This document shows positions 10,625 to 56,553 of a stretch of 64,000 nucleotides of DNA, piece by piece (positions within the stretch are counted from its first letter, which is position 1; the number at the start of each line of letters is the position of its first letter). Where the stretch lies: positions 1,922,001 to 1,986,000 of the forward strand of contig CM102284.1 in assembly GCA_046563655.1 (NCBI GenBank), written 5' to 3'. Below the pieces are notes generated by a model. It was not told the DNA's origin. It was given only the letters and a program-made list of their open reading frames with translations, and made no database searches. Source of the stretch: Yuukianura sp. NJ FZ-2021 (lineage: Eukaryota). The position numbers and the translations under genes were made by a program.

Positions 10625-11894
10625 ATGTTCGCAAAAATGAAAAAGTTGAAACCCCAAAAACTACTTTTACTTTTTGGAATTTCCTTTTCACTGTACATTT
10701 TTATAAAATTTGGACCGAAAAAGTTATTTGAACTTCAAAATCAACAAATTTCGACCAACGATATGCTGACAAAAATTCGGAAAAGTCCATGTCAATTGCT
10801 TAGCTTTAATTTGAGGTATACATTTTGAAATTCAACAGAAAACTAAACTTTTAAATTTTTTTGAAACAATTTTTGAAACTTTCAGCTTTCCAGAAAACCC
10901 GGAAACAGACATCGCCATTTCGCTCAGTGCTCGTCAAAATTCAAAACGTTGTGTCAAACGGCTCGCGCCTAACGTTCCTTCACTAACGGCCGAATGTCGT
11001 GACCGGCTTGGAAATCAAATGTTTTCTTACGCCACTCTGTATGCCATTGCACACTACAATCAGCGTCAAGCCCACATGTCTCCCCTCATGTCCACATATA
11101 TTTCAAAATACTTCCAAGTATCTTTAGCCACTTTGGATGAAATCACTTACAAAAACACTAGTTGGATAACCAGAAACCTTCCAGCCAAAGTCCAGAACAG
11201 CATTCGTCACCTTCCCAAAAAGGCGCCAAATGGATCTCCCTCCAGAATCAAATTCTGCTGCTTCCCCCAAGCATGGCGCTATTTTCATGACCTCCGACCT
11301 CAAATTCTCACAGAATTTAAATTTCATCCAGAAATACAATTCCATGCTGTTCACGAATTGGCTAGAGCAAAACAAAAGTTTTATTCAAACTTACCCGCCA
11401 GTCAAGTGACGTTCATTGGAGTCCATGTCCGAAGAGGTGACTATGTCAGGGAACAACAGCTGAGAAGATGTAGGCTACCAACAGTAGAGTATTATAAGAG
11501 TGCCATGGCCTATATAGGTCACAAGGTCATTAACCCCGTGTTCGTTGTGGCCAGTGACGACATTGGCTGGTGCCAAAAAACGTTTGTCGATCGTCACTCA
11601 TCATCGTTATCACTAGGTGACAAATTTCGGATCCACTTTTTGGAGGGAATTGACAAGCATAGAAGTGATGCTGGTTGGGACATGGCCGTCCTGTCGTCTT
11701 GTGACCACGTCATTTTTGGTTTGGGCACTTTTGGATTTTGGGCGGGATATTTGAATCCAGGAGAAGTAGTGTACTGTGATGACTGTATTCCGAAGGACTC
11801 CGTTTGGATGAAAGCCCGAGCCATCTATGCTGGGAATTACGGTAACTTTGTACTTCCTAGTTGGAAAGGAATCCACTGGAACGGAACTGGCTAA
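10625..11894 (+). CDS. Alpha-1,2-fucosyltransferase (GT11), copy 2
   Basis: Exons 10625-10815 and 10886-11894, with the same intron position and phase as copy 1. Motifs RLGNQMF, GVHVRRGDY, VASDD and GTFGFWAGYL. Confidence 0.92.
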
Positions 11895-12762: not shown

Positions 12763-13542
12763 TCAGTCATCCATGTCTCCTGTCTTCTTTCTTAGAGAGT
12801 ACTTGAACTTGAGCCGTTCCAGATCTGCGTTAGTTCCTTTGTGATGTTTTCGCACATGATCAAACAAGTTCCATTTTTTAGAAAATGCTACAGTACAGAG
12901 TTCGCATTTAAAGGGTTTGTAGTTAGAATGAGTACTGATGGTATGTCCAAGTAGATGAATTCGTTGTTTGAAACTTTTGCCACAAGTAGGGCATGCAAAC
13001 GGCCTCACATTCTCGTGAATCGTTTGTAAATGGACTTTTAAGTTCCATGGTGAAGCAAATGAGCTGTGACAGTACTTGCATCCGTAGACTCCCGAACCGT
13101 TGTTGATAATAGCCTCACGGCGAGGTGCCTTTTTCAAACCACGTTTCTTGACTCCAGGAATACGAATTGACACAGTTGACCGTCCCTTCTTGGCTATCGG
13201 TTCCCGTACTTGTGGACGTAGTTCCGGCATCTCCTCGGTTTCTAATTCTTCTGACGGGGACGGTGGCGATGGTGTCGGTGGAAATAGAGTCGCTAGATGC
13301 TGACTCGGTCGACTGCCTGGATGGAACGACTGCTCATGTGCACGTAACTTTTCCAGTGACATGAGGATTCTCGGACAGTGGTTACAGGCGTAGTAAAAAG
13401 TATCAAAGTCCCTCTGTAGTATCTCTGCTGCTGCAGCATTTTGTTTCTCCATGTAAATTTCGATTGGATCCAAGTCGGAGTTGAACGTGTCAGACAAGGT
13501 CAAAGGGGATCGTCCATTCCTCCGCAACCCATAGTTGTCCAT
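12763..13542 (-). CDS. C2H2 zinc-finger protein, apparently single coding exon
   Basis: 259-aa ORF with one N-terminal finger and three tandem C-terminal fingers joined by HENVRPF and HSNYKPF linkers. Confidence 0.85.
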   Translation of the reverse strand: MDNYGLRRNGRSPLTLSDTFNSDLDPIEIYMEKQNAAAAEILQRDFDTFYYACNHCPRILMSLEKLRAHEQSFHPGSRPSQHLATLFPPTPSPPSPSEELETEEMPELRPQVREPIAKKGRSTVSIRIPGVKKRGLKKAPRREAIINNGSGVYGCKYCHSSFASPWNLKVHLQTIHENVRPFACPTCGKSFKQRIHLLGHTISTHSNYKPFKCELCTVAFSKKWNLFDHVRKHHKGTNADLERLKFKYSLRKKTGDMDD

Positions 13543-13913
13543 TGCTCGTCAATAGTGGAGTATTCAGCAACTTTCGATTAATGTAGCCCTTTATCAATAA
13601 TAAAAGAGAGAAATTATGGTTGGAGATCACTTTCGCAGTCTGTTTTTCTTAGTCGTTTTTTTCACATGGACATGCTCCATGATAACCGCCAAAATGACCT
13701 ATACAAAAGTTGTTCCTCTTGAAAAGATAAGCAACTTTTTTTAGTACCATTTTTCTTTGCGACCTTTCCTTGAGGTCACAGGTCAAGGTCAAAAGGGGCG
13801 TTCCCTGACAACCGACAAAATGGTCCCTACAAAACTTGTCCCTCTCCCCAAAAGCTACAACTTTTATTAATGAGGCGATTTACAGATTCGCTTATACGCA
13901 ATTTCCCATAAGA

Positions 13914-30227: not shown

Positions 30228-31274
30228 ACAAACGAACTCCTCCGATTTTAAGTAAAACATGACAGCGTGACTTTCAAAAAAAACATAAGATTTTGAACAT
30301 GCGACTGACAGCAGGAAAATGAAGAATCTAACATCTTTGAATACGAACAACTCCAACAAAATTGAAATTGCCGCGTGTTTGTAAGTGGTGATTGTCAAAA
30401 TTTCAGAATTTTAAGGATTCCCTCCTAAAAGTTTTTTTTTTTTTTTTTGAGAATAGGCTTGCATTTTATGGTAAAATTTTTATCTAAAAGGTGACCAAAC
30501 AACTTTTGTTTTGAAACTTTTGTTTTTTGTTTTAAAATTTAAGTCAAAGTTTGGAATTATATTTGAAATTACTTTGAATTACTTGTAATTACTTTAGTAA
30601 TTGGAAGTAATTTTAAATCTTGCCATTGTTTATATAAACTAACATTAATTTTAATTAAATGTGTAAGTTAACATTTTCAATGTTAAGTTTAATCTGTTAG
30701 ACATTTTTTTTTCTTAAACAGAAGAATTGACTACTTAAAAAACTGTTTCAGATTTTAACTCATCAAGCAAAGGATGATGGAAGAATAATTTTTGTTGTGC
30801 AATGTATATTTTCACTTGGTGTTGACTGAACTTTAAGTGTAAAAATTGTCAATTGTAAAATTTGTTGTACAGTTATTATGGTGAACGCTAAAAATAATTG
30901 CAACTCTTGTCACATTTAATTTATTCCAAAAACTAATCCAAATAAAACTGGTGGAAAAAGTTTCGTTTTTTTTTCCGTTTCGAATGACGTCACACTAAGC
31001 TTTTTCACGCACAGTGGAGTAACTGCGGTTGCGCACGTCACGTTTTTTTGTTTCAACCAAATTTTGAATTCGAGGATTCATATTTTTTCCCGCCGGAACT
31101 TCCGTGTCCTGTTTTTAACGCGGAAGGCGGAAGTCGTGGTATTGGTTGTGTTTTTATTAACCAAAATTAGGTTAGCAGAATTCTGGAGCGCTGTTTGCTC
31201 ACTTCCTCCAGAAATTCTAAATTTGTCTTATATTTCAGTAAGTTTTGGTGTCAAAATTTACAGTATGTGACAGA

Positions 31275-34117
31275 ATGGCGTCGAGCTATGTTTACGCCGT
31301 TGTGTTGGCAGTATTGGTCAATTGCGCATGGGCAACGAATGTTCACCCGCTAGATCCATTAACTCCAACAGAGATTCAACAGTGTTCACAGATTATTCAA
31401 AAGTCTCAAGCGACCTCTACTGGTTGGAACTTCATTTGGGTTACGCTGCTGGAACCAGAGAAAAAGATTTTGTTTCCGCTCCTTCTGCGCGAAGATACAT
31501 CTGGATTTGGACGTATTCCGAGACGCTGCTTGGTGGTCATCATTGAACGGAATACTGGACGTGTGTTTGAAGGGCGCGTAAATTTGAATTCAAATCGAGT
31601 TGAAGCCTGGGATCAACAACCTGCTGGAACACAACCGCTTTATGCTCCAGACGAATTGAGAGCTGCCGAACGCATTTTTCGGAACGACTCGGCTGTTAGG
31701 GAGAGATGTGCGAAACTGGGATATCGAAATATGGAAAGTGTCGCTGGAGAACCATGGTAAGTTTTTAAAATTTTGAATTGCTGTTCATGATTTTTAAATT
31801 TTTGGACTTTTACAATTTTGAAATAATTTTAGGGCTATTGGATACATTGGTGATCGGAAAGAATGGGTCGGGCGACGTCTGTTACAAGTTTTTCCATACG
31901 GATTGAACTCTCCCGATGACAATCAATTCGTTCATCCGTTTGATTTCATTGGAATTGTCGACGTCATACAAGAGCGCGTGATTCAAATTGAAGATTTACC
32001 GGTTCATCATCAATTTTATCCGAAGAAAGGAAATCCAGGAGTTACCGTGCCCAGAAGAGAAGCAAATTATGACCAAGCTCTTCTTCGCGCCAACTCTTCA
32101 CAGTCATCACGAGTCCAAGGTCAACGGGGTCACCAAAAATGGACGACGATTTCGCAACAAGGGCGCGGAGATTCCCGCTCTGTTGAGAAACTGGAGCCGA
32201 CGGCTTCGCAGCAAGGGCGCGGAGATTCCCGATATGTTCAAAAACCACGTCCGGCATATACGCCTGTTTACGCGCCACTGCCGCAAGCAACGCAATTTTC
32301 ACCAGCATACCAATTCCCTCCGTTTCAACAACCGTTTTACCGATTCAAACGGGAACCCCGGCAATCTTTCGCGCCAAAAATTCCTCCTCAAGGAAACTCT
32401 TTCGCGCCAAACATTCTTTCTCAACGGAATTCTTTGGCGCCTCAAATTTCTCTGCAAGGAAATTCTTTGAGATGGGAGAATTTTCGAGTTCAAATTGGCT
32501 TCAATGCCAGAGAAGGCCTAGTTTTGCATAACATTCGATTTCAAGATGGCGCGAAGTTGCGACCCCTAATTTACCGGATGTCGATTGTGGAAATGCTGGT
32601 ACCGTATGCCGATCCGAGACCTCCGTTTCATCGAAAAGCGGTTTACGATACAGGAGAATACGGTATGGGATTTTGGGTGAATTCGCTCCAACCTGGAGTG
32701 GATTGCACTCCGACAGCAGTGTTTGGGCATGCCGCACTGAATGATATACGTGGAGGAGGAGCTACGCGCCAAAACGTTTTTTGTGCGTATGAAGAGGAAA
32801 CGGGACTACTTTTTAAACATACAAATCTCCGTAATAACAGAGTAACATACGCGAGGAATCGTAGACTGGTTATTTCCAGTATCTCAACGGTGGGAAATTA
32901 CGACTATGCTTTTTATTGGATATTTTCATTGGATGGAAGTATTGAGTTTACGGTAAAGGCTACTGGGCTACTGGATACAGAACTGCTAGCTGAAAGGGAA
33001 GCTACGTTTGGTTATGGAATTGAAATTTTCCCGCAAATTAATACTCCGTTTCATCAGCATCATTTTGTAGCAAGGGTAGATCCGATGGTAGATGGCGCTG
33101 TGAACTCTGTAGCCGTTGTGGACATCGTCCAGGACAGTGCTGAAACAGGCTCCAAACAGAATCCTTACGGTAAAAAGATTTTTTAGTTGAAACGGTTGCG
33201 GTAAGGATAAAAAATCGTCAGTGTAGCCGCACAGTGTTGCCAAGTTGTGGCTACATCATATGGCTACAGAAGCAATCCTTAATCCTTACGTCAACCGAAG
33301 TTTGTCCAATAGTTATGGTTGAGGTAGACTCGAGTAATTATCATTGTTGCGTGTTGCCACATAGTGTAGCCACCAGCAAACATTGTGTTGTGGCTATGTG
33401 GTTACTCTAAGGTGGCAACTTTTACTTAGGTTACTGTTGGCTGGACTAGCATGGCAGCATATAGGTTGACAAACAGTGTTGCCATCCGCAGGGATAAAGT
33501 GGCAACACTGGTGTTTAGATTGCGTCAACTTATCCTTACTTCAAACCAAATTAATCAACTTTTGATTTAATTGAGCGTATTTTAACTTACTTAAGTTCAC
33601 TTTTTTTGTAGGTCAAGCATTTGCAGCTAAACGGAAGACACTTGAAACTGTTGCCGAAGGCTGCACGCGGATTGATCCACTCAAAGGCCGAACTTGGGAC
33701 ATTTTTACCAACGAAGTTCATCCAAATACGAAAGAAAAACGTTCCTGGCGATTCATTCCAAGAAATACTCCACCAATTCTCATGCGTCGTGACAGTCCAC
33801 TGTTTCCAAAAGCGGGATTTTCAAATTACGACATTTGGGTCACCGAGTACAAAGACCAAGAACTGTACCCCGGTGGATTCTACCTCAACGGAAGAGGGAG
33901 CCTCCCAGAAATTGTTAAGCGGAATCCACATGCGAGTGTCAAGGACAAAGACGTTGTACTTTGGCATGTTTTCGGCTTGACGCATATGCCACGCGCAGAA
34001 GAGTTTCCGATCATGCCCATTGAAGAAACTGGGTTCGTTCTTAGACCGCATAACTTCTTTGCACAGAATCCCGCTCTCAACTACGGTACAAGCTTTACTT
34101 TACCCCAAGCACCGTGA
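31275..34117 (+). CDS. Secreted copper/TPQ amine oxidase, fungal/bacterial type
   Basis: Exons 31275-31756, 31833-33169 and 33612-34117 join in frame. Signal peptide, HPLDPLT, catalytic Asp in AVYDTGEYG, TPQ site TVGNYDY, and Cu ligands HQH and THMPRAEEFPIMP. Confidence 0.95.
33232..33510. mobile_element. MITE-like insertion in amine oxidase intron 2
   Basis: Ends cagtgttgcca and tggcaacactg, with internal tgtggctaca/tgtagcc sub-repeats. No clear TSD. Confidence 0.5.
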
Positions 34118-34732
34118 GTTTTCGCGCATTCTTTTGAATTGTTTCACGGTTTTGTGCGACTTGACATATTGATCAGTAGGTTTTATTGCTTAAGTATTGC
34201 ACCTTCCCCAAACATGTTTGTCTTGATTTATGAAAATTTAAAACTTCCACAGCATCTTTGAAAATTTTGTTTGAAACAAAGTACAAATATTTGAGTACTT
34301 ATACTTAATTATACTATTACACACATACTAGATATATTATACTTAGTATTACACAATTTCATTAAGTATTTCAGTGAAAAAGTTCATTAAGTATTTCAAT
34401 GAGTAATTTCGTTCCATAATTTCACCATTTCAGGTATTTCATTAAAAGTCTTTCACCAGAGCATTTCATAAAGATTCAATGTATATATAAATATATATAA
34501 AACATAAATATCAGGATAAATATATGAACACAGAGTGTATATATGTATATACATAAAGAAAGTAAGTTATATCAAAATATAAGTTAGTTAGCCCCGTGAC
34601 CTTTTTTTAAGTACTGACCTTGACCTTATACGAAAGAAAATAACAACATGATTCATGTTGTTAAGTTCTTACTTGGAACGATAATATGACGCGGTGTGGT
34701 GACGGTAACGACGACGTTAGCAAGTGAGATGC

Positions 34733-37331
34733 TTATACTCCTAAGATTTCTCTAGGCGACGACGTATCTCTTTTTGGATCCGCTTCAGTATTTTCATTGC
34801 ACTGTCGCTGTTGATGTCGCTTGAGTCCCCCCATTCTGCGAAACTTTTGTGGACAGAGATGGCAGACAAACTTGCGCTCAGCGTGGACCATCGTAATGTG
34901 AACCTTGAGACTCTTTTCATTCTTAAAATCCTTCGGACACTTTGGACATTTATGACGCAATTCACACTGTGCAAGATGCGTTTTCATGGTGGCCCTAAAA
35001 TGACAAAATACACTATTCATTCAATTGTTTCTTTTTTCAAAGGTTGAATTCAAAGGTGTAAATTATTTAAAACTTACGTGTCTGAAAACACTTTTGCACA
35101 TCGCCGACATGGAACTGCATTTGGACCAGGTCCGTGGTGGACATGCTGAGACTCTGTTTGCTGAGCACCTTGTCGCTCAAGTAAGCGCATGCGCAATTTT
35201 TCCATTCTATGTCCTTGCGACAAGTGGACTTGGAACTCCGAATGCTCCAAGAAAGTGGCGTTACAAATGTTGCAGAAGAAGTTCATTTGGCAAGAGCTTC
35301 TTTGAGTGTCATTCGGGATTTGAGCATATCCAACAGTAACTCGCGACGGGGGCGGAGCTTGTTGGCGTTGTGTGTTAGATTGATACTGCGTTGTTCCATC
35401 GTGGGGAACCGCTTGATTCAATAAAGTTCTCAGAAAATCTTCCCAAGTACTATCAGCATTTGATGATACTTGCGGGAGCGGAAGTGACTGATTGAGAGAT
35501 TCATTAGGTGGTCCAGTGGAAACAACCTGAAATTGTCCGTCTTGATACTGAAGCTGCTGCACACGTACTGGCATTGACGTCATTCCTCCAATATTGATGT
35601 TGTTGCTATGAGATGATTGTAGTGGATGATGTACGCATTGACTTTGGTCTGAACTTGGTCGGTATTGCTCTTGTAATGGTTGTATGAAATTGGGATAGTG
35701 CTGACGTATTTCATGTGCATGATATTGAGATTGTAAGACACATCCGCCAAAGGGCATCGGACTTAACCCTGAAGATGGACGGTATGATCCGAGATGGAGT
35801 TGGTCATAGTTACTAGGCAAAACAATTGGTGTTGTTACTGATGCTTGTGGCGGTGTAGTATGCTGTGGAGCAAGAAATAAAGCTGAACTGTCTAGAGCAG
35901 ACTGAAACGTAGTAAGATGAAGAGGCAATCGTGACGCCAGGATGCCATCCACGATAGAATCCATAATTGGATTCCTGGCCGTGTCTGTGTTTTGAATCTG
36001 ATTAAGCATCTGACGAGTTGGAACACAGTGATTGTCCAAGTGATCACCCAATGTTTCCGAATTTGGAAATGATATCTGACAGAAGTAGCATCTCAAACAT
36101 GTTTCTGGTGAGAACAGCGGTTCGTCTGGCGATTGGAGTTCGATTGGGTTATTTGAACATTGTGGATTGGTATGGGCGATATGGGTTGAAGGAGGGAGTA
36201 TTTCTTCTGCAATTTGCAACGGCGTGTGCGTCCGTAGCGCATGGTCAGCCATAACATGCGATACATCTTGTTGAGGCTGACTACCTGCTTCAGTAGTGCC
36301 TGCTTGGTCCAGATTCTGGAGGCGCGGTTGAACACGAGCTGTCGGTGGAAGGAAGATCACATCGGGCGTTTGAATGACTGGAATCCTCTGGCAAGTAACA
36401 AAAGGCTCTTCACCGGTAACGGAAACGTTTGTCACCTTTGGTGTCACATCACCTTTTTCTTCCTTTCCAACGGTGATGGCCAAATCGTTTGGAAGAGGAA
36501 GTCCTTGGAGACGCTTACTAATCAGAGAAGACGTATCGCCAATATTAGAACCAATTATTTGAACTTTGCCTTCTTCTTTTTGGTCTTGCGACGTCTCTTT
36601 GTCGTTGTTGATATGTATCGGAACTGGAAGAACTTGTTCTTCATCAGCATCATAGTTACTGCGACATTCCTTCAAATGTGACTTGAGCAATCCAGATTTT
36701 GGAAATTGTGAGGAACATCGAAAGCACGTGAACACAATCCCCACCCCTTCTTTGTACTCCATTAGCGAATGAGTCCTAAACAAGTTCAGATGTATTGAAA
36801 CACGTTAAATCATAATTAACTGAACGTAGTCAAGTAAGAATTTAAGAATTAAGGTTACTTTGAACATCCGAGTTTGTGACAAAGAAGACAAGCCTTGGAG
36901 TTAGTGGAGCTGGCATTCTCCCTGGGTTTTTCTTGGACGGAAGTGCTCGAAGTTGCTTCCAATCTGTTAAGTAGAACGATAGGCTGCAAAAACTTGACTT
37001 CATATTTCTGAACACAATGTTCCAGAGGTGACAGCTGTATTCTCGGAAGATAGAGCTTGGAGCAGTGCTCTGGCAGCAACTGATTAATACCATGCATTCT
37101 AAAATTCCAAATACGAGATGATTAGGTAGTACACAAAAAACAGGGACTTGAGCCAAAGGTATGAATGACATGGACAAGGTACCTTGAGTTAATTTCAAAT
37201 AGAGGCACTGTGCATTTGTCCGTAGTAATGTCGTCATTGCCTTCATTGTCGTGGTTGGCTTTGTGAATGAGAAACTTAAATTCGTCCTGGATAAGGACTT
37301 GACAGCGGTCACATTGAAACCAGGCGGCCAT
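34733..37331 (-). CDS. C2H2 zinc-finger protein with dispersed fingers and a Q/P-rich region, multi-exon
   Basis: Fingers CDRC..H..H, CFRC, CYFC, CNIC, CRRC, CPKC and CHLC across ORFs 37122-37340, 36855-37097, 35074-36783 and 34733-35020. The start is uncertain. Confidence 0.8.
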
Positions 37332-43356: not shown

Positions 43357-45327
43357 ACGTCTCGCTTTTATCCAAATTTGATCTGTACAACAAAAATTGA
43401 AATTAACACACATTCCAAATTCAAAATCAAATCACACTATGAAACTACGTTGTTTAAGTTATGTTAGGTTGAATAGTTTAGGCTAAAGATAGTTAGGTTA
43501 GTATGTCTAAATTCAAGGTAGGTTTTCGTATAAGCGGATCACATATGAAAGAAAAATGTTCTTATTAGTCTTTGCAATATGGCACTAGAGCTGTTTCAGG
43601 AATTCCGGTATATAAATTTTAAAATCTTCAAAAATTTTGAACAATTTTGAACAATGCAATCCATAATTTAAAAAAAAACTTCGTATGCACAAATGTAAAA
43701 AAAAGAAAGAAAGAAAGCTATGCCGCAAACCTGGATTTGTACTCAGCCGTAACTTTCAGACATCTAATTTGTTTTGGATATTTTTTTTTAAAAGCATTTT
43801 TACTTAAGTATTCTTCTATAAATTGATTTTAAGTTGTCCATGAGTTTGAAAATTCATAAATCAATTAATCCTTCATTGATCACAGAAAAATTGGTCGTTA
43901 GTTGTCTGTCTACCTGAACAATAAAAGCGCTCAAACCACCACCCCAACGACCTCGCTTTTTCCTGTTTTCGAAATAATTTGAAGTGAGACAATAAAATAT
44001 TATTTTATGTAAATAATTTTATGTAAAATAATGACACGACCTTTAAAATCCAAATCAAATCGAGAAAAACAAAATAATTAAAAGGGTTTAGAGGAAAGCA
44101 GGAATTGGATTTTTATTTTGTTGATCCAAATTCATAATTGGGCCAGTTAAACTCCTTTCAACTCAACTTTCTGCAAGGTTAACTTTTGTTTCCAAAGGTC
44201 AATTTTTATGGTAATAAAAGACGTAATTTAAAATTGTGAAAAAAGTAATTAAAAACGATCGATCTTGACCTTAACAATTCACGCAGTGTCAAAAACAACT
44301 AATCATACAAAACACAATGACTTTAGTTTTACTAGTCATCGTTTGTAATTTAGGTTTTTTTTTCCGCCATACTTCGAAAACTGGATCTTTTAATTTCAAA
44401 GTTTCACACAAAATGAAAAAGGCATAATTTTATTTACCATTGTAAGGGGCTTGAAAATATTAAAAGCGAGTTAAATTCAAATTGTATACAATTAAATTAA
44501 TTGGAACAAAAAACAAATAAGTTATTACAACTAATTCTTTAATTACTAGGTGCAGCTTAACAGTGAAGAGTGGAATAGCCGGAGGGCATTTTGACCTGGT
44601 GCCAGTTACGACACCTTTAGCCATGCGTTATTAATGGAGTTGATTCTCAATTCAGTTCTTATTTGGATTTGATACAAAAAAGTGAGAAATAGTAGATGCT
44701 GTGATGTGATTGATTTGGTATTTAAAATTCAGAGTACAATTGACTACAATGTACAACACTACTAACCTTGCATCACTTCAACTCTTCATTTTCCCAGTTG
44801 CAAAACACTGTGTAAAACTGAATGTGATTCTTTTTATAGGTATGTAATACCAAATGAGAATGCGGCCAAACAAAAAAAAATGAAAAAAATGTCAATTAAA
44901 TATTTAGGGTTCTGTAAACTCAAACAATTTGCATGTTCCATTAAAAACTTCCGTGACGGTAGCTAATTTATGACGATAGCAGTACTTAAACTGGAAAATG
45001 TCCCTTTGAATATGCTAGATAAGCCATTCTATTGATTTAAGCCATATGGATTTGCTCTACATTATATTCATAATCCCACATCATCAAAGTTATAGTTCAG
45101 TTTCTTTAGATTTTGATCTGTTTTTGTTTAATAACTTTTGAAACATCGGGTTTCTGATAAAAAACATGCACTGACAGCGCTTCCTAAAGTTCCTACTTTA
45201 AAAACAGCACGGAAGTTTACTTACTTTACTGTAAAGATTCATAGCTTACGGTTTAAATAACTCTGACTCTCCTTGGCCGTAGTCTCAACTTGTTTCTGTT
45301 TGTGTGGTCTATTATATTGCTGGGGCA

Positions 45328-47445
45328 ATGTTCAAAACAATTGTAGCTATACTTGTGATTGTTCAAACACATTTACCTTGTGAGGGATTTGTGTTTACCT
45401 CGTTTGCAGTAGGGGGTTTTGAAAACTGTTACATGTTAGTATTTGAATTTCAGGAAAATTTGGCTTTGTTTCCAGCAAAAAATTTCCGCCAGCCCGTAAC
45501 TCTATTTAATCGCCATACCGAAGTATCTGATATTACAAGTCTAAAACGTAAGACTAACGACAGTTTTGGAGAATTAAGACGGCTATGGCCATTTGTGAAG
45601 CAGACTTGCCTATTGTACTATTTGGTGGAACCGAAGTACCGCGGGGATGTCGCTCGAGGTCAATCTGACATTCACGAAATCCTAATATGTCACTCAGTAA
45701 TTATTCGTCCATACTGTTACGGATCCCACACATATATGGTTGTACTGTTCTCGAATATGACTAAAATTGAGTCTTTGCAAAATAAGTATTGGCATTTGCC
45801 GCTTTTTGTAGTAAACTTTCAACCAAATTTGCCAACTCCAACTTCATTTTTGGTTGAGATTGTTCATCCTTGTCATCGAACAATTCGCATGAGTGTTCAA
45901 AATTTGCAAGCATTGGAGGAACATGGACTGCGCAACGTACTAGAACAACTCCACCAGAAGCTGCTTTTTAGTGCATGCCATATCGAGTGGATTGTGAATT
46001 GTCCAATGTCGCCTGAAATCACATTTAACGACGAAAACCTGCTACTCGGACTACGCGTAATTAAAAAGCCGACCTATCAAGCGCACACTCAAATCATTAA
46101 GAACCTCATTGCAAATTTCGACAAGTCCAGTGTGGGGAAAGATGCCCAAAACGAAAACAAAACTATTTTGGCTGGTCAACTTTTTTCAAACCAAGTTACA
46201 TCTGAGGAATGTCAGTTTAGGCCCAAATCCTTTCCACGCACATTTCCAGTCCGCCCGTTTTCAGATTTCAAAATTCATATTGTTGGGATTAAAATTGACG
46301 TCGTCCCCAAAAAATCCGTCCTGAATTTGGCCGGAAGCCAACAAGACATGAACATTTATATTACTCGACAAGTTTCGTTCAACTTTATCAGCTGTGACGA
46401 GCACGTAAAATTTATATCATTTAACGCCCTTGCAGCTCCGTTTAAAAATGATGTGTGGTATACACTAGCAGCGGTGTATTCCATACTGACGATTCTATTG
46501 TTCGTGTATATGAACATTTCGAAATCAAAAGCAAGCGCCTTTTTCATAATGGCACAAATTTTGCTGGAACAGGGCGCAAAAGTGAGCCGGAAAGCTAATT
46601 TCTACAGGTCATACTATGGTTTAATGACTTTATGCTTACTAGGAGTTCTGACTGTGATAAACGCATACAAGGGAATACTTACTGCACGAGCAAGTGCGCC
46701 TCGATACACTCAGCAGCTACAGACGATACAAGAATCAGTGGAGCGCGGCCTTCAACTTCTAGTTGAAGTGAATGATAAGTCAAAGTTTTTTCGTCCCGAA
46801 CGAATTTCGAGCAACATGACATTTCGTGATAGGCGTCGGGTGGCCATCGAATTTGGCAAGAGAAGTCGATTTTATAACCTATTGCATGAAAACGCCAAAG
46901 TGGTATTATTTTTAGACGAAAAGCCGAAGGGAGTAATAAATCAAATACTTGAAAACACCGATCTAAAGTCCACTGTAAATTTCAACACCACTGAAAAACT
47001 GTTGGAATGCAACAAAACAATTTGGGTGGGTGAACAGGATGAGCTGGCAGAATTTCAGCGGCGGAGTGATGTGGTACAATATTTAAAAAACAACTCTGAG
47101 ATAGCTCAGAAATTCTACGTAGGCAAAGATAAATTTATGCCGCACTATGTAGGCTGGGTAGTTAGCCCCAACAAGTGGGATCGGCTACAAAAATTTCATT
47201 TCCGAATCCAACACTTTCTTCAATCAGGCTTAAAAACTCACTTGGAACAATTGGAAACTTTTTTGAATTTGACACGGAGCTTACGCCAAGAGACATTGAG
47301 AGTTTCTAGGAAAATAAAATTATCAATGGAACAAAATTTGGTAGTAGTGACATTTGCTTTGTACTCGGGGTTAATTTTACTCAGCATTCTGATTTTAGTT
47401 GAAGAGTTGGCACGAAATTATGTTACGAAATATTTTAATGCATGA
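45328..47445 (+). CDS. Divergent ionotropic receptor (IR), intronless
   Basis: Signal peptide, pre-M1 ALAAPFKNDVWYTL, pore ILLEQG, M2 INAYKGILTA and a C-terminal TM helix. Confidence 0.78.
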   Translation: MFKTIVAILVIVQTHLPCEGFVFTSFAVGGFENCYMLVFEFQENLALFPAKNFRQPVTLFNRHTEVSDITSLKRKTNDSFGELRRLWPFVKQTCLLYYLVEPKYRGDVARGQSDIHEILICHSVIIRPYCYGSHTYMVVLFSNMTKIESLQNKYWHLPLFVVNFQPNLPTPTSFLVEIVHPCHRTIRMSVQNLQALEEHGLRNVLEQLHQKLLFSACHIEWIVNCPMSPEITFNDENLLLGLRVIKKPTYQAHTQIIKNLIANFDKSSVGKDAQNENKTILAGQLFSNQVTSEECQFRPKSFPRTFPVRPFSDFKIHIVGIKIDVVPKKSVLNLAGSQQDMNIYITRQVSFNFISCDEHVKFISFNALAAPFKNDVWYTLAAVYSILTILLFVYMNISKSKASAFFIMAQILLEQGAKVSRKANFYRSYYGLMTLCLLGVLTVINAYKGILTARASAPRYTQQLQTIQESVERGLQLLVEVNDKSKFFRPERISSNMTFRDRRRVAIEFGKRSRFYNLLHENAKVVLFLDEKPKGVINQILENTDLKSTVNFNTTEKLLECNKTIWVGEQDELAEFQRRSDVVQYLKNNSEIAQKFYVGKDKFMPHYVGWVVSPNKWDRLQKFHFRIQHFLQSGLKTHLEQLETFLNLTRSLRQETLRVSRKIKLSMEQNLVVVTFALYSGLILLSILILVEELARNYVTKYFNA

Positions 47446-47935
47446 ATATCCTTGTGTTATTGGGTAAAAATTAATTCACATACAACAATTGAGGATCAGA
47501 ATATTTTCAACAAATTCTGTACCCCACAATTCAGTACCTCACAATTCTTGGACCCCCGGGGGTCTGGAGGATAGGGTGAACCGGCTGCGCTAAATTGCTT
47601 TACACATAGCAATAAATAATAATATAATAAGGCATATTTATATAATATAATATCGAAAGGAATATGTAATATAACTAAAAAGAAATTTCAATTACATTAG
47701 TATAGAAAGTCGCTCCTTCGTGTTAAGGGTGGGAGGAGCTCTAGAATCACGTAGTGAGCATAATAAAACAAAAAATTTTTTTTTGGAGTCTTAGACGGGG
47801 TTCTTATTACTTAAAGTTTCCAAACACGCGACACCTTTTCAGTATTAATTAATCTAAAAGCATCTGAAAAAGTGGGTAAAACCAACTAGCAAAAACTAAT
47901 ACTGAAGCAAATAGTTGGTTGAAATTTTCAGTAAA

Positions 47936-50550
47936 ATGGAATTCTTCAGTGTTTTGAATGTATTCGAGTACTGCTACCCCATTCTACTATGGAACATGGA
48001 GGACACTTCACCCACTACACTTTCATTTGCTAACTTCAAATTCCCAGTAACCACTGCAAATTTGAAACTGCGCAGTCCAGTGGCACGGAATATGCCAATT
48101 TTTCCAAAGTTAGGAAGATCCGATGACTGCCTGAGTGCGTTCTACATATCACCATTTTACCGTCTCTATGAAAAGAAGGAGAATAAGGCAACTGTGGATG
48201 GAGAATCCGTCAACATCTTGTACGGCATGAACGGAAAAACTGAATATTACAATATTTCATATTTTGGGGATTGGGATTGTGACGTTGGAGCTAAAATCTT
48301 AGGTTGGTGCCCTCAAGAAGTCTACAGCAGAAGTTACTTCAGTCATTCCATAGGATTTTACTATGTCGTAGCCATTCATACTGCGGAAGAATTAAGGACG
48401 ACGACCGTCCAAAACTTCGCCGTGATTAACATGGGTAGTCTTCGGCCCTTTGTTTCAGTCGTACTTACGCCAAATGGAACATCAACTTGCCTCACAATCA
48501 CTGATCCAAACAACGAAGCATTCTGTTCTGTGTCATGTGATTATCAAGTATTGCAAAAATGCTTTTCTAAATTGAAATTTGGAAAAAAAGCTATACCTGC
48601 TGGAATGCACTTGCCACAAAACATTACCGCTCCGTTGCAAAACTTGAGTGAAACGGATATTCGCCGTCAATCGTTGGCGTCCTATGCCGCGCACTCTCGA
48701 AACGTTTCGAAAATATTTTTTGGTAACGCGCAGTGCAGTAATCTTGTTGAAGAGGCGGATGGTACCATTGAAGAAAACATGCGTGAAACGTACCTAGCCG
48801 AGGCTGTGACGAATAAATTTTTGGCGAAAGAGCTTATTCGCGGTAAATTTAACGGCTCGTGGGCTATGTGTTACACAAAATTAGGTTACTCAACTCAAGA
48901 CTATGGACTGCGCATGTACGTTGCAGACAGTAGGAGGTTGTTTACTATAAGACCAGGGGCTTCAGCGGGCCATCTCTATCGTCCGGTTATTCTCAAGGGA
49001 TCGGCCAAGTACAGCTTCTCGTTTCTTGGTTGTTTGAGTCTCAATGGATCAGCTTCTGAACTCTCGTTTCGAGCGTTCGCGAAGCCGTTTGAATACGAAG
49101 TCTGGTGGAGCGTGTTGACCTTTCTTATTACACTGGTACTCTGCATGGCGCCTTTTTTCAAAATTTGGGAAATGCCGGATTCTGTTTCTGTTTTGGTTAT
49201 GAGATTCGTTTTGGAGCAGGGCCTTGTTCTCAGCAGCAAAGTTGAAAGGTCAAACCCATTCAGAATTTTTCTACTGGCAGTCCTTTTCGTTCTATTAGTT
49301 TTCATCAATGGATACAAAAGCTTGGTGACAACTAACATGTTGGCACCAAACCCCGTGCAAGAGGTGACGTCATTCGAACAGGCTGAGGAGCTGAACCTGT
49401 CGTACATGCCAAACGATTGGAATCTGGAAAGAACCTATCATACTACCACAGAGAGTGCTATTGATATTTTACGTATATTTTTCCCGCTTTTCGAAGCTTC
49501 CTACTGGAGGAACGAAACTTTTACGGATACAAAGTATTTGATTCTTTCAAATTTACTTCAAGATCTAATGTGTAGACACGGTTCCTATTTTACGAGAGGA
49601 GGCGATGATGCCCAAGTGAACTACGGCGAGTGGGAAATACGATCTCACACTGCGTATTTACTAAGAATGAAAAAGAATTTTACGCTGGAGGAAGTTTGCA
49701 TGGATTCAAGGTTGAATCTCAGTAGTCATTGGTAAGCTTTTACAATTTTTATCAAAATAAGTTGAACTTGTAACTCCTGCAAGTGAATTTAACTCTTTCA
49801 ATAGTATCATCAGCTTTAAAAGTCAAATGTAAAACATTTTCATCATTTTAAATTAAGAAAGCAAAATCTAAAAGCATTAACCAAATTCTTTGTAGGAAAA
49901 CGATCATGAGACGCCTGGTTCTCCCGAGCGACTTTATTCCTGGCAATGGGAGCTGTGTGCGGGAATTTTTGAAATGCAACGGAACAATGCTGATAGTGAC
50001 AGAACAAGGAATGAACAACCTCCACCTCCGCCTTCTAAATACATCACACGAAAGTCTACATATCTACAAACCAAATTTGGATCCAAATGCAACTTTGCAT
50101 GCTTCAAACAAGCACTACATGCTGTTGTTCAACGATGTATTTGACTACTACTACCTGATGCCTCGGATTCAAGGAATTCGAGATGGTGCCTTTATGTTGC
50201 ACTGGGAGAAAAATTTAGCGTGGTACAATAATACGCTGCTCTACAACAGAAAACTACATTGGTTACAGGTGGAAAGATTGCAGTACTGGAGAACCAAGCA
50301 GTACTTGACACTGTTACAAATAAGCACAGTATTTGTGATTATGGCAACATGTACAGCGGTGTCTATTGTGGCATTGGGGTGTGAAATCTCCATATACAAA
50401 GTCTGGCAGGCATGGATGTCCATTACCACTATAATTCAATCGTGTACAACTAAAGAAACTAAAGAAAAAAGGTTTGTAAGATATGTAAACCGTGTCATAT
50501 CGTTGCAATCTTCAACCGCCGGAACCCTGAATGCAACAAAAACGGTGTAA
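47936..50550 (+). CDS. Divergent ionotropic receptor (IR), 2 exons
   Basis: AFAKPFEYEVWWSV, FVLEQG and FINGYKSLVTTNML. Intron 49732-49895 joins the two ORFs in frame. Final TM helix ISTVFVIMATCTAVSIVALGCE. Confidence 0.78.
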
Positions 50551-51559
50551 ATTTTCTCCCGCTACTTTATATTTTTTATCGGATTAAGATTTAAATTTAA
50601 CTCGGTTCAAAATGAACAAGAAGGAGTTTGTTTTCTTTTGTCTTTTCATTCAGTTTTTTGTAATATTTTAAAGGGTGTTTAAATTTTTGTAATACAATAT
50701 TAGAAGCGAATTTTACCCAAAAACCTTGCCTATACCTAGCAATCGTTTATGCTGTGCGGCGCTAATATTTTGATGGATTCTATGAATAGTAATTTATCTC
50801 AAAGCGAAAATTTTATCCAAACTGAGCACACTTTGGAATGATGCAAGGACAAGGCTGCCAAAATGTCAACAAATTTTAACATCAATTTTCACAATCGACA
50901 TGCATTGCACAAAAAGTTTGCACAAGTTAAAAATAGGCTAAAAAAGTTAGATAAAAAATAGTAATCAAAAAAGTTCATAACATTTACCTTGACTTGTTAC
51001 ATTTTTGGAAAATTTTGAAATTTACATCGGGCTGAAGCTCATTTTTTTGAGCAGCTTTGTCTGTTGTTGAAATGCTTTCACCTTGAAAACTTTATTTGCA
51101 GAAAGAATTGAAAGTTAACAATTTTTCATTGAATAGTTCTTGTGTTTTCATGAGCCGATTACAGGTATAAAAGTAGCGTTTGAACTTAGTGGGTGGAATC
51201 TTCTGGTTTCGGTTGATTAAACGTTTTAACTTCGTATTGTCAAGTAACTTTGTCGTATTTTACAAAGGAAAATTCACAAAAGTAACAAAATTATTCGCTA
51301 ATTGGAGTTCGCTGTTACTTTGTATGTATTTTGTGCTTGTACTTAATGAGACAAAATATAAGAAAGGGAAGTTCATCCAAGCTCAACCACTTCACGCTAC
51401 ATTAATTTATGTCAGCTTTCAATTATTGTAATAAAAAAAGCCGGGACAAATTAGTTCTTACATTTGATATACTAACTTACGCTATTTAAATACGGTTTTA
51501 ACGCTTCGCTTTTTCATTCTTAAAAAACCCGCACTTATTAAACTTTGCAATCGTCCAGC

Positions 51560-53032
51560 ATGAAATCAACAGTCGAAAAATTCATTTTCTTTATCAAGTT
51601 GCAGCGAATTGCTGGAATTTTCCCGCTTCATTTTGTTTATGAAGTAACCAAGCCAGCCAAGACGTGGACGTCGCCTGAACCAATCACATCACCAGAAAAG
51701 CGGTTTTTAAAAGTTGAACTTGCTGGGAAAAAGTTTCAGTATTTTTCTTTTCTAGTTCCCGCTTTTGTCTTCATTCGTGCTTTCGCGTCGATTGCTTTTT
51801 TCCTTTCAAAAATGTCGAACAAAACCCAATCTCTGAAAACCGTTATGTGTGCTCTATTTGTCACCCATATAATTTCAACAATCTTTTTATTTCTTACGAT
51901 ACGAAGATATGCAAAACGCATGGTGACTTTTTTGAACAATTGGCACATTTTGGAAAAAGAAATCGGGAAATGCTGCGATGCAGGTATGCAATTGCAAGTC
52001 TTAAAATTATCATAAAAATTTTTCCATCGGTATTTTCAAATTTATTAAGAACTTGACTTTCTATACTTAGGTAGATTTTATATCTTGCAATATTCATTAT
52101 ACCAATACTATTTTTAATTCTGCGCTTTGCTGCTTTGTTAAAAAGATTTAGCCTCCGGGATGTATGCAACTGTACATTCGATCCATGCAAAACATAATGC
52201 GGGCATTTTCAAGTTACTATCTTACATTACTTTCATATTGCCGTTGGCCATGTTTATACGAAAGGTGGAATCAATACACGACATTCTTCATTCCTATTGG
52301 ATCCTTGGGTTTCAAACTTCACCTCCATCTGCTTTGACTGACGTCATTTACATCGTTACCTCCCTGGAAACTTTAGTATTTATGGAATTATTTTGGATTT
52401 CCGCGTCTACAATTGATCTCATATGTATCAGCTTTCCATTTAGTATCAACAGATGCCTAACTTCCCTAATTCGACTTTCTAATCAAATACAAACATTCAA
52501 CAACTCTGGTAAAGTAATTGTGGAAGACGGTCTAAAGTCAAGCTCGGTAAAAAAGCTCGTTCAATTGAACACCATAATCGGTCTGTACAAGAGAATTCTT
52601 GACATTACACGCTCTTTTAACAGAATGTTTTCTACTTATGTGTTTTATGGAATGTCTGGCATGCTATTTTTTATGTGTTATGCGATCTATGGCTTTACTC
52701 GATTTCGGGAAGGTGTTTCGGATGATACTTTATTATTTTGTGGCTTTGCTGTAATTGGATCAGGATTCCGGTTTTCGTTAATGATCATACTCATGGGTCG
52801 AGTGCACAACTCGTCAATGGCGTTGCAGAATGTCTGGAAGCAAGAGCTGTTGAACGAAAAGGATGATGAAATTTCTACCAACGTATTTCAGAAAAAAGTA
52901 GAAAGTTTGGCCCAAAATTTTACTCCTGTACAGTTCTGGAGTGGCGGTTGTTACGGTGTTTCTTCTTCAACCCTACTAACATTCCTGTCAGTTGTAGCTA
53001 CAAATAGTATTGTACTGCTGCAAATGTTTTAA
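51560..53032 (+). CDS. Gustatory-receptor-like 7TM protein, copy 1
   Basis: Exons 51560-51983 and 52152-53032 (phase 1). Hydrophobic helices and TM7 motif GCYGVSSSTLLTFLSVVATNSIVLLQMF. Confidence 0.85.
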
Positions 53033-53897
53033 AAAGTATTGAGCTTTAGCACGAGGTATGATAAGTTGCTATTGTTATTACGTATTTAGACATATAGGCA
53101 ATTAGACATAACACGTCACATATATACAACGTATACGCCGTTATTCAACGTACGTGAAGTGTTTATAGCATGCACGTGAAAGTGTAATCTATGTAGTTTG
53201 AAACTATTTATTTCTATGTAATGTACATAAATTTAGGCGCTGAATGTTTATACGTAGTACCTACAACGTAGTAACTAAATGCAAATGTAGAAAAATTTGT
53301 CAGACGATGAAAGTATAAATAAAGTTGCATAATATAAAAACATTAGCAATAGTTATAACGCCTTATGAGACAAATATGTACCACTTCTCTAGTGGAAGCG
53401 TTTTTACCTTAAAAATTTCATTTGCAGAAAAATACCAAAAAACTTATTAAAAGTAAACAACTTTCACAAACAATGACAATGACATATAAAATTTGGTTGT
53501 CCTTACTTTCACTAATTAAAATATTATACGAAACGAAAACAGTTTTGGGCTGGGCTGTGGTTTATGTGGATTCCGTTCAATAAAGTAAACGTTATCATTG
53601 TTATACGCGTTTGTTCGAAATTAAACAAAAGCGACAAAGTACTCAATTTTTTATAACTTAATTTTGTAATTGCTTTCAAAAAGTTTAGCAAGTTCTTTGG
53701 CGTTAATTGGACAAAACAAATTTAAGGAAACACCCCACGAGTTGACCCGCCCACAAAGCTGCTACAGTATTTTAAGCGCCTTCCTGTTCTAGCGAAGTTA
53801 ATTGTAGATTTGGCAGGCAAACACTTTTTCAAAACGGTTTTCAACTTTATTCATTTTTTAAAAACCTCTCGCTTAGAAAACGTGGAAATCAATCAAC

Positions 53898-55865
53898 ATG
53901 AAATCTACAGTCGAAAAATTCATTTTCTTAATCAAATTCCAACGGTTTGCTGGAATTCTCCCACTGGATTTTATTTATGAATTAAAAAAGCGCGCGGTTT
54001 GGAATACTTCACAACAAACAATCTCGAAAAAAGTTTTCAAAAAAGTTCAACTCTCTGGAGAAGCCAGTCGAAATTTTTCTGTAATCTTTCCTATATATTT
54101 TTTGGTTCGTTCTATTACCGCCATGGTACACTTCCTTCTAGAATCGACGCACAAAAATTTCCTGTCTCCCCAAAGTATCATCTTTGTTCTGCTTGTTACA
54201 CAAGTTGCTATAAGTGTTCCATTATATCTCTACGTACGTGGATATGCAAAATCCGTTGTTGTATTTCTCAACAACTGGCACGTTTTGGAGTACCAAATTT
54301 CGGAAACATGTGGTACAGGTACATTTCTTCTAATAAAACTAACAGTAGGTTGGCTTCCAGGTATCACGCCATTTTGTCAAATAAATTCCTGCGAATGAAA
54401 TTTCTTCGAAACTCAACTTACTTCGAAAGGCATAGCAGGTAAAATTGTCAGAAAAATTTGGTCGGAAGTGAAAAGGTCAGAATTTAACAGATCTCTCAGG
54501 TTAGGTTTTATTACCTTTTCCCTTTTCTGACCTTTTTTTATCATTCCACTTTTCATTTTTTTATTTTCTGACCAAATGGCATATTGTACCTCGATATTGT
54601 GTTGTGTATTGTATCAATTGTATTGTGTGGTTATAGGATTTGTTTGCTTAGCAACAACTTTCCGAAGTAAGTCGATTTTCGAAGTAATTCGTTTAGCACA
54701 AATTCGTTTGAGAAAGTGGCATGTAACCGTATCCAATCCCTTTTGTACAAACATTTGCAATAATTTCAAGTTTTTTTTTTTGATCAAACAAGAATTAACA
54801 AGAGCATTTTGACAAAAAAAAATTCTTCAGTGATTGTTGCTCATACAACATAAATTAAGCATTAACGCATGAAATTGATGCCATGCTTTAGTCAATCAGA
54901 TGATATAATTAGAATTTAACATACCTTTGTTCTGACCAATTTTGTAATACGTAAAAAAAATTTTAGGTGTCTGTGCTAGGAAACCAACTAACAATAAGAA
55001 CAACGCTACTTCTGAAAAAATTCAGGCGGGAATGTTCAAATTACTAGCAGTAAGTTCATTCATGTTGCCAATTTTGATATTCTTTCGAGACCTTGACATA
55101 CTAAACGTAATGCTGCATTCCTACTGGATTCTTGGATTTGGGACTTCTGGAACCTCCGTTTTTACAACCATCGTCTACATTTTGACCTCCGTGGAAACAT
55201 TATTGTATTTGGAATTGATTTGGGTATGTGGTTCGACCTACGACCTCTTGTTCCTATCATTCCCATTTAGTGTTAAGAAAAGCCTGATGTCATTAATTCA
55301 ACTCAGTAAGCACAGGGAAGCATATACTGAAGTTGACAAATTTGTACTTCTGGAAGGCGGTTTGAGGTCAAGGTCAGCAGTCAGGATGGTACAATTAAAC
55401 AGACTGATTGGCTTGTACAATCGAATTCTTGACCTCACAGATTCTTTTAACCGAATGTTTTCCAATGTTGTGTTTTGGGCTAATCTTGTTACGTTAAGTT
55501 TTACGTGCTACTCCGTTTATGGTATTGCGCGACTCCGAAAAGATGCGCCCATTGGAATGGTATTTCTTTGTTGCTTTGTTGTATTGGGATCAGGAATTCG
55601 TTTTTTTGTAATGATGATAGCTATGGGTCAAGTACATACTTCGTCAATTGAATTGCACAATTGCTGGAAGCGAGAGTTGTTAAACGAATGTGAAAGTGGA
55701 AATTTCAGCCGAGAAATTTCAAAGGAAATACGAGATAATTTTGTGCAAAGTTTCATTCCGGTGCAATTTCGGAGTAGTTCCTTTTACGGCATTTGTTCTT
55801 CAACGGTTCTAACATTCCTGTCCGTTGTTACTACAAACTGCATTATACTATTACAAATGTTTTAG
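53898..55865 (+). CDS. Gustatory-receptor-like 7TM protein, copy 2
   Basis: Exons 53898-~54318 and ~54967-55865, same intron site. C-terminus VTTNCIILLQMF. Confidence 0.85.
54360..54728. mobile_element. MITE in the intron of receptor copy 2
   Basis: About 70-bp imperfect TIRs: ggtatcacgccattttgtcaaa...aacttacttcga and tccgaagtaagtcg...tttgagaaagtggcatgtaacc. Confidence 0.65.
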
Positions 55866-56553
55866 ATGCGTCATTTTTTGTAACAACATAGTTAAGTACT
55901 ATAATAAACTTTTCACTAAGCAAAAGGATCAATAACATTTTAGTTATCAAAAAAGTTAGAGGCATATAATTTATTTTCAAATTTGTAATTAATTTGAGAA
56001 ATGTACATGGGGCTAAAGCTGACATGCTTTATTTGAGCTTCGTCTGTTATTTAAATGCTCTCACCTTGAGAACTTCATTGGTGGAGAGAATGGAGCTTAT
56101 TAAAAGTTAACATCTTTACACAATCGCACAGGATGTCTTTATGTGTCATATGCCGATTACATGTAAAAAAAAACATCAAAAGAAGCGTTTAACATTAGTG
56201 TGTTGATTATTCAGGTTCCGCTTGAATAAATTTTCAAACCTATGGGTTGTCAAGTAACTTATTTATGATGTCATTTACAAAAGAGATGAGAAGGTTAGCA
56301 AAATTAATTGAGTTTACTAATTTGTGTAATTACGTAGACAAAGTCAATTAAAAAAAGAAAACTTCACCCAAGCTCAACTGTTTCACGCTACATCTATTTA
56401 TGCCACCTTTCAATTATTGTAATAAAATTGCTGAGACAAATTAATTCTTACATTTGATAAACTATAGTTAGTTTGTTTAAAAACTGGTTTGAACACTTCA
56501 TTTTAGTCATTTTAAAAAAAGGTTGCGCTTAGAAAACTTTTCAATCGTCTAGC

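Follow-up and report, generated by a model that had tools for sequence, protein, structure and literature searches.

The 64,000-nucleotide (nt) stretch analyzed here (contig CM102284.1, positions 1,922,001 to 1,986,000, of the Yuukianura sp. NJ FZ-2021 assembly GCA_046563655.1; hereafter, the window) carries a predicted copper amine oxidase gene whose product has, in the linker preceding its catalytic domain, a repeat-rich insert with two GRGDS motifs and an RFKR tetrapeptide at its C-terminal edge. The oxidase gene lies on the forward strand and consists of three exons with canonical splice sites, the spliced product being 774 amino acids long. Exon 1 (31275..31756) encodes a hydrophobic N-terminus and the N2 domain and ends at an ATG|gtaagt donor. 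Intron 1 (31757..31832; gtaagt...ttttag) has 76 nt and a guanine-plus-cytosine (GC) content of 18%, and splicing at its borders restores the EPW|AIGY junction as it reads in homologues. Exon 2 (31833..33169; protein P0001) encodes the end of N3, followed by the insert and the greater part of the catalytic domain. Intron 2 (33170..33611; gtaaaa...ttgtag) is a 442-nt phase 1 intron with 40% GC that follows NPYG and has a counterpart at the matching position in L001, a metagenome relative described below. Exon 3 (33612..34117) supplies the C-terminal part of the catalytic domain, including the third histidine ligand (GLTHMPR), and terminates with the stop codon at 34115-34117.

Pfam was run on the three exon products separately. 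PF01179 matched residues 205-445 of exon 2 (E = 3.9e-82; 276.8 bits) and, with profile positions 250-407, exon 3 (E = 6.7e-39; 134.4 bits), in both cases above the cut-off of 27. PF02727 was also above its cut-off in exon 1 (E = 1.6e-08; 35.1 bits versus 21). The PF02728 match at exon 2 residues 2-57 is marginal (22.4 bits versus 22.6) because the domain is split by intron 1. The topaquinone precursor motif NYDY (32896..32907) occupies exon 2 residues 355-358, with N355 and Y356 in invariant columns of alignment A1. The catalytic aspartate is the D of YDTGEYG (exon 2 residue 272), HQH lies at residues 407-409 within an intact HQHH, and THMPR is encoded by exon 3. The cofactor motif, the catalytic aspartate and the three histidine copper ligands all lie in columns of the alignment that vary little or not at all. 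Judged by these residues, the gene product is a copper amine oxidase with intact catalytic motifs. It also appears to be secreted: read by eye, the N-terminus (MASSYVYAVVLAVLVNCAWA|TNVHPLDPL) resembles a signal peptide, with an A-x-A sequence preceding the conserved HPLDPL. At the other end of the gene (34112-34120), the TGA stop overlaps a donor-like GTGAGT, and an alternative 3' exon may exist. The L001 protein ends within about one residue of the end of the window protein, at a clean TAA TAA, which argues that the oxidase stop is probably real. Intron 2 is packed with nested short direct and inverted repeats built on GTGTTGCCA and TGGCAACAC, such as the 22-nt arms at 33247-33268 and 33352-33373, and may have been left by a small foldback element; an Rfam scan of 30500-34800 returned 0 matches at E up to 0.1.

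The insert, a hypervariable segment rich in Q, S, P and R, spans 32086..32340 (amino acids 246-330). It lies between N3, whose Pfam match ends at exon 2 residue 57, and the catalytic domain, whose match starts at residue 205. A preceding sequence-only reading of this DNA had described a Q/P/S-rich stretch between the N-terminal and catalytic domains of an amine oxidase, and the Pfam positions, the alignment and the linker lengths bear this out and show an in-frame insertion. In the 85-residue core, Q, S and P amount to 16.5%, 11.8% and 11.8%, versus 4.4%, 3.7% and 5.6% in the remainder of exon 2. The same reading had reported a 54-nt direct repeat encoding SQQGRGDSR twice. Such a repeat is present, with two 48-nt copies (32144-32191 and 32198-32245) that start 54 nt apart and each encode this peptide, but it is imperfect: the copies are 85% identical over these 48 nt, and blastn aligns them over 58 nt at 82.8% identity. 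The two GRGDS motifs are located at 32161..32175 (amino acids 271-275) and 32215..32229 (amino acids 289-293). YRFKR (32338..32352; amino acids 330-334) forms the C-terminal edge of the insert, RFKR itself corresponding to 32341-32352 (amino acids 331-334). The intervening P/Y/F/Q-rich stretch includes PAYTPVYAP and PAYQFPPFQQPFY. Sequence and spliced translation place both GRGDS motifs, PAYTPVYAP and RFKR where they had been reported. Just beyond the end originally given to the insert, three 33-nt tandem units (32365..32463) encode SFAPKIPPQGN, SFAPNILSQRN and SLAPQISLQGN. They duplicate the segment leading into the first catalytic-domain strand, which is a single unit in relatives (GGPPSISLEGN, NGGLRATGN), so that the window adds two extra copies; the first unit holds the family-invariant P-x-G-x-S residues. 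No copies of the insert DNA other than its own repeat were found within the window.

The 12 distant homologues aligned, two of which are the Folsomia candida proteins, all lack the insert. Measured from the Y of N-Y to the G of G-N..W, the linker has 26-37 residues (median, 28) in 112 of 112 full-length homologues, 129 residues in the window protein and 87 in L001. A search with the insert alone (exon 2 residues 78-204) yielded 37 candidates, none of them at E up to 10, and Atlas look-alikes were generic copper amine oxidase clusters only. By these comparisons, the insert is lineage-specific and restricted to a small clade. The possibility that the GRGDS units are decayed copies of the family linker motif R-x-D-L-K-P...QP.G.SF was considered as well and dropped after profile and weight-matrix tests. 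A linker profile built from 112 of 120 homologues (those of at least 600 amino acids) matched with only its last 23 positions (SLQGNSLRWENF...), and a gap-free weight-matrix scan for the family motif in the linker did no better than shuffles (p = 0.45).

A representative protein search gave 2974 matches with E no higher than 0.001, and P0125 was the only one of the 150 listed to exceed 50% identity; in large protein searches the matches listed besides P0125 reached at most 48%. P0125 is a 175-residue fragment, 65% identical to the window protein, that leaves the insert site uncovered. A metagenome scan retrieved 33 loci, of which L001 alone is close, the other 32 being 30-46% identical. Identity of L001, a 2128-nt contig, to the window protein is 83% over the N3 part and 78% over the catalytic part. 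The insert site is covered by L001 and by P0273, a 227-residue fragment, which were the only such sequences found. Both carry an insert at the matching position, different in length and sequence. The window insert has about 84 residues, the 54-nt repeat in two copies, and two RGD motifs; that of L001 has 64 residues and is P/Q/H-rich, with neither tandem repeat nor RGD; that of P0273 has 106 residues, with five to six copies of a 17-residue repeat (SGQGRVPSQSQPTPARN) and no RGD. Over the alignable part, identity between the window insert and those of its relatives is 30-36%, as against 75-83% in the flanks. In this three-way comparison the insert is hypervariable, each lineage having repeats of its own.

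To what extent the insert is ordered was addressed with two AlphaFold2 models, both of exon 2 alone. With a 13-sequence alignment, the mean predicted local distance difference test score (pLDDT) was 59.5, and exon 2 residues 56-201 scored below 50. With 116 sequences, the mean was 75.6 and the flanks scored 85-98; residues 94-193 and 195-200 were below 50 and had no secondary structure. This low-scoring segment takes in RFKR, the two GRGDS units, and units 1 and 2 of the 33-nt repeat, and in the 116-sequence model the segment with the RGD motifs and RFKR scored 34-47. The insert is thus modelled without structure, which fits a disordered, exposed loop.

Chance levels of the motifs were estimated from 20,000 shuffles. 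At least one RGD arises by chance in 1.3% of cases in the 107-residue low-confidence segment (0.5% with one repeat copy removed) and in 12% in the 445-residue exon 2 protein; for at least one R.KR, the corresponding values are 3.7% and 7.6%. The stop-to-stop frames of at least 150 amino acids in the window (8486 amino acids) hold 5 RGD, two of them in the insert, and 4 R.KR. The exact GRGDS pentapeptide is locally rare, yet RGD and R.KR are common motifs, and their mere presence therefore says little. Since both GRGDS stem from one duplication, they count as one event. RGD, moreover, is found in 0 of 2 relatives covering the site, an absence that the sequence-only reading had itself named as counting against its proposal and that leaves the proposed tethering to integrins without comparative support, and it occurs somewhere in the sequence of 27 of 269 other homologues. 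Consistently with these counts, RGD is very likely not a conserved functional signal. RFKR behaves differently. [Y/W]RFKR directly follows the insert in all three insert-bearing sequences, the tetrapeptide being identical in the two closer relatives that cover the site, and the 269 other homologues are all without RFKR. In the window clade the adjacent family motif, QP.G.SF, has decayed; that RFKR is retained beside it points to a clade-specific constraint, and RFKR is likely to be under selection.

A quick tree was computed from 43 rows, namely, 40 of the 269 homologues (named ones plus some unnamed) and three clade members, with P0273 omitted as too short and with a midpoint root only. The window protein, L001 and P0125 group together with a Shimodaira-Hasegawa-like approximate likelihood ratio (SH-aLRT) value of 100. 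Their sister group consists of two oxidases of the springtail Folsomia candida and two unnamed proteins, and the resulting 7-row clade (SH-aLRT, 98) is separate from the clades of fungi, algae and bacteria that were sampled. The enzyme had been described as borrowed; the tree places the gene with the Folsomia candida oxidases, away from the sampled fungi and bacteria. With a root placed by midpoint only and no identifiable donor, a borrowed origin is not established.

The explanation that we favor is that the insert serves as a spacer in the D3-D4 linker of a secreted, catalytically intact copper amine oxidase of an animal, probably an arthropod, where it would be translated and intrinsically disordered. 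The spacer would already have been present in the common ancestor of the small clade and would have evolved since then chiefly by replication-slippage duplications and insertions or deletions, which would have given each lineage its own repeats (54 nt in two copies and 33 nt in three copies in the window; 17 residues in five copies in P0273). The GRGDS pair would be the product of a single duplication in the window lineage only; rather than a conserved ligand of integrins, it is most likely something that a Q/G/R/S-rich unit produced by accident. The sole invariant element of the spacer would be [Y/W]RFKR, at the point where it meets the catalytic domain. A furin/Kex2-type proprotein convertase would cut after RFKR in the secretory pathway, and the N-terminal D2-D3 piece with its floppy tail may then stay noncovalently bound to the D4 catalytic dimer. 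We hold with high confidence that the insert is a translated, disordered, slippage-built spacer. The explanation as a whole, i.e., a disordered D3-D4 spacer with an accidental RGD and a conserved RFKR whose most likely fate is cleavage, is the best overall, and we give it an even chance of being correct.

Observations on the spacer, on its RGD motifs and on RFKR weigh against this explanation and lend themselves to other readings. The comparative base consists of two metagenome sequences, one of them a 227-residue fragment, which may be orthologues or paralogues. The structural models cover exon 2 without exons 1 and 3 or the partner subunit, and a low pLDDT does not in itself prove disorder. 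Each of the three forward frames is largely open between 32085 and 32470, so that the open frame of the window alone is weak evidence of translation, and the insert might be wholly or partly absent from the mature protein, as an unrecognized intron or a retained-intron artefact of the gene model. There is one weak in-frame pair of splice sites for such an intron, AAG|GTCAAC at 32120 with ...CTGCAAG| at 32458; among 38 in-frame GT..AG pairs, however, no donor resembles GTRAGT, and excision of 32120-32458 would remove both the family-invariant P-x-G-x-S and the conserved RFKR. The frame also stays open through three unlike inserts of about 84, 64 and 106 residues, and the GC content of the insert (51%) differs from the 18% and 40% of the two introns of the gene, all of which makes a hidden intron very improbable. 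As for the RGD motifs, the two 9-codon cores encoding SQQGRGDSR differ by 2 synonymous changes only, whereas 6 of the 9 codons flanking the core differ between copies, all of them nonsynonymously. This pattern hints that RGD is not accidental (our own Fisher estimate is ∼0.04, with boundaries set post hoc) and, small as the numbers are, suggests either selection on the core or gene conversion. It would suit the model proposed in the sequence-only reading, in which the RGD would anchor the oxidase to integrins and RFKR would serve for its release or activation, yielding a cell-bound, cleavable source of hydrogen peroxide (H2O2). An exact GRGDS occurring twice in a segment modelled as exposed, the conservation of RFKR, and the RGD of human VAP-1, albeit one of unknown significance according to its cloning paper (PMC2525535), speak for the same model. 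Its probability is nonetheless low, given that both copies derive from one duplication, that RGD is lacking in both informative relatives, and that more distant homologues also contain the tripeptide. In P0273, the look-alike units read GQGRVPS; aligned by eye, SQQGRGDS (twice in the window) and SGQGRVPS (five to six times in P0273) share an S-x-Q-G-R-x-x-S core in which the G-D of RGD falls on variable positions, and the spacer then ends in RFKR. These cores allow a reading of the spacer as a protease-addressed bait or pro-region of a latent or tethered oxidase that would be processed at RFKR by convertases and after Q-G-R by trypsin-like clip proteases, the unit having in addition become a working RGD ligand in the window lineage. 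If this were true, local output of H2O2 and aldehyde would be coupled to wound, immune or cuticle-hardening protease cascades; we consider it improbable to a similar degree.

Cleavage by a convertase, which the favored explanation assumes, is itself a tentative assignment for RFKR, the likeliest of those considered but less probable than not. R-X-K/R-R is the proprotein-convertase (furin) consensus, and RFKR fits it within a segment of pLDDT below 50 in the exon 2 model. However, R.[KR]R occurs in 210 of the 269 homologues, mostly as a buried R.RRLV, and the consensus alone is therefore weak evidence. The first Arg of RFKR may be equivalent to the nearly invariant Arg of the family motif R-x-D-L-K-P, and Y-R-F-K-R alternates aromatic and basic residues, with P5 and P3 conserved, a pattern more in keeping with a beta-strand than with a plain convertase site. 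RFKR could thus be the version that this clade has of the structural R-x-D-L-K-P strand at the start of D4, with a role in folding or packing only. In both relatives, RFKR precedes the GN..W strand by 17 residues, and the consensus Arg precedes it by 20; BLAST aligns REPRQSFAP with REPHSAFAP of P0136, which puts R334 on a conserved Arg, and the alternating pattern would suit a strand. What makes this fairly doubtful is that the remaining family motif (L-K-P, QP.G.SF) has degenerated in the clade while RFKR is invariant, that the weight-matrix scan mentioned above found nothing above chance in the linker, and that AlphaFold2 assigns the site low scores (34-47) and no secondary structure. RFKR may also bind heparin, as the same tetrapeptide does within RFKRKLPK of human diamine oxidase (PMC8445614). 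Together with the basic residues that follow it (RFKREPRQ, RFKREARQ, RFKRQRQSVR), it would then form an uncleaved glycosaminoglycan (heparan sulfate) patch by which the secreted dimeric oxidase is held on cell surfaces or matrix. The presence of the motif in all three sequences, in a segment modelled as exposed, accords with such a patch, and the dimeric nature of copper amine oxidases would provide two copies of it. The positions are not homologous, though (the D3-D4 linker here versus residue 568 in D4 of diamine oxidase). The basic residues form a short cluster, which in two of the three sequences is followed by an acidic Glu, and we regard this role as unlikely.

If the favored explanation, a disordered spacer with a fixed RFKR, holds true, the gene represents a small and hitherto undescribed animal clade of secreted copper amine oxidases in which a linker has turned into a fast-evolving repeat spacer with a fixed basic motif. 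It would further imply possible post-translational control, by cleavage or matrix binding, of an extracellular H2O2-producing enzyme in arthropods. The locus offers a case for how short linear motifs arise, persist or vanish in slippage-prone disordered enzyme inserts, and a caution that an exact GRGDS, even a duplicated one, can be the private by-product of one duplication. Among the titles and abstracts searched, no paper was found that ties copper amine oxidases to furin processing or to springtails.

The remainder of the window contains genes of animal-like character, namely, 7tm_7 chemoreceptors, a P450, GT11 fucosyltransferases and C2H2 zinc fingers. C2H2 zinc-finger open reading frames (ORFs) at 572-3544, 12763-13548 and 34733-36804, all on the reverse strand, flank the oxidase gene. 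ORF 35074-36804 is very Q/P/S-rich, and low-complexity coding sequence is therefore common in the window. Two paralogous GT11 alpha-1,2-fucosyltransferase-like ORFs lie on the forward strand at 6059-7090 and 10815-11894 (the one scanned matched PF01531 at E = 8.2e-40), and between them a cytochrome P450 C-terminal exon occupies 7366-8010 of the reverse strand (PF00067, E = 6.1e-66). On the forward strand, ORFs of 720 and 606 amino acids (45283-47445 and 47915-49735) are hydrophobic in segments close to the C-terminus; Pfam, at E up to 0.01, matched neither of them. A forward-strand tandem array of five two-part chemoreceptor-like genes extends over 51542-63124, each with an ORF of about 150-173 amino acids followed by one of about 296-313 amino acids ending in ...ILLQMF; the sole member scanned (52142-53032) matched 7tm_7 at E = 7.9e-10. 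Such an array points to an arthropod as the host.

Among solved structures, exon 2 best matches the peroxisomal copper amine oxidase of the yeast Hansenula (HPAO; PDB 2oov/1a2v; E = 2e-66) and that of Arthrobacter (AGAO; PDB 1av4 and others; E = 3e-62), which have in common with the window oxidase the N2/N3/catalytic architecture, the NYD/EY motif and the three His ligands. Where the window protein has 147 residues (exon 2 residues 58 to 205), HPAO has 41 (194 to 235), and neither RFKR nor RGD was found at the linker of the two enzymes. HPAO and AGAO are peroxisomal or cytoplasmic; unlike them, the window oxidase has a hydrophobic N-terminus. The nearest named animal relatives, at 41% identity, are the Folsomia candida proteins annotated as 'peroxisomal primary amine oxidase isoform X1' and 'Copper amine oxidase 1' (P0005 and P0022), whose linker is of ordinary length, without insert, and reads ...NYDYKLRGGAKFLRQDDKPIKVESPQGASY.... 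P0005 is instead extended at the N-terminus by about 110 residues, hydrophobic at first, then Cys-rich and then Thr/Pro-rich, ahead of an HPLDPL-like DPLDPL; the add-ons to the enzyme thus differ between lineages.

Human diamine oxidase (AOC1) resembles the window oxidase in displaying a conserved, surface-exposed RFKR on a secreted dimeric copper amine oxidase. There, 568-RFKRKLPK-575 of both monomers forms a heparin-binding site, and mutation of R568 and its neighbours abolishes binding to heparin and heparan sulfate while activity is retained (PMC8445614). Diamine oxidase belongs to the vertebrate-type clade (exon 2 match, E = 7e-13), and its motif lies inside D4 in a longer and more basic cluster; the resemblance is convergent at best. 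Human VAP-1 (AOC3) is a copper amine oxidase active in adhesion, with an RGD at 726-728 near its C-terminus, which its cloning paper calls 'commonly occurring' and of unknown significance (PMC2525535). The sequence-only reading had pointed to VAP-1 as an oxidase that acts in adhesion; the window enzyme belongs to the yeast/Arthrobacter type and is no orthologue of VAP-1 (for exon 2, E = 2e-66 with the Hansenula enzyme versus 4e-17 with VAP-1). VAP-1 falls in the vertebrate clade and is a type II membrane protein. The integrin-binding GRGDS of fibronectin, in GRGDS(P), is identical to the pentapeptide of the window. Fibronectin presents RGD on a structured FN-III loop and conserves it among orthologues, whereas the RGD of the window lies in a repeat unit private to one lineage. 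With known convertase sites, finally, the window RFKR shares the R-X-K/R-R pattern and its location in a protein that probably enters the secretory pathway.

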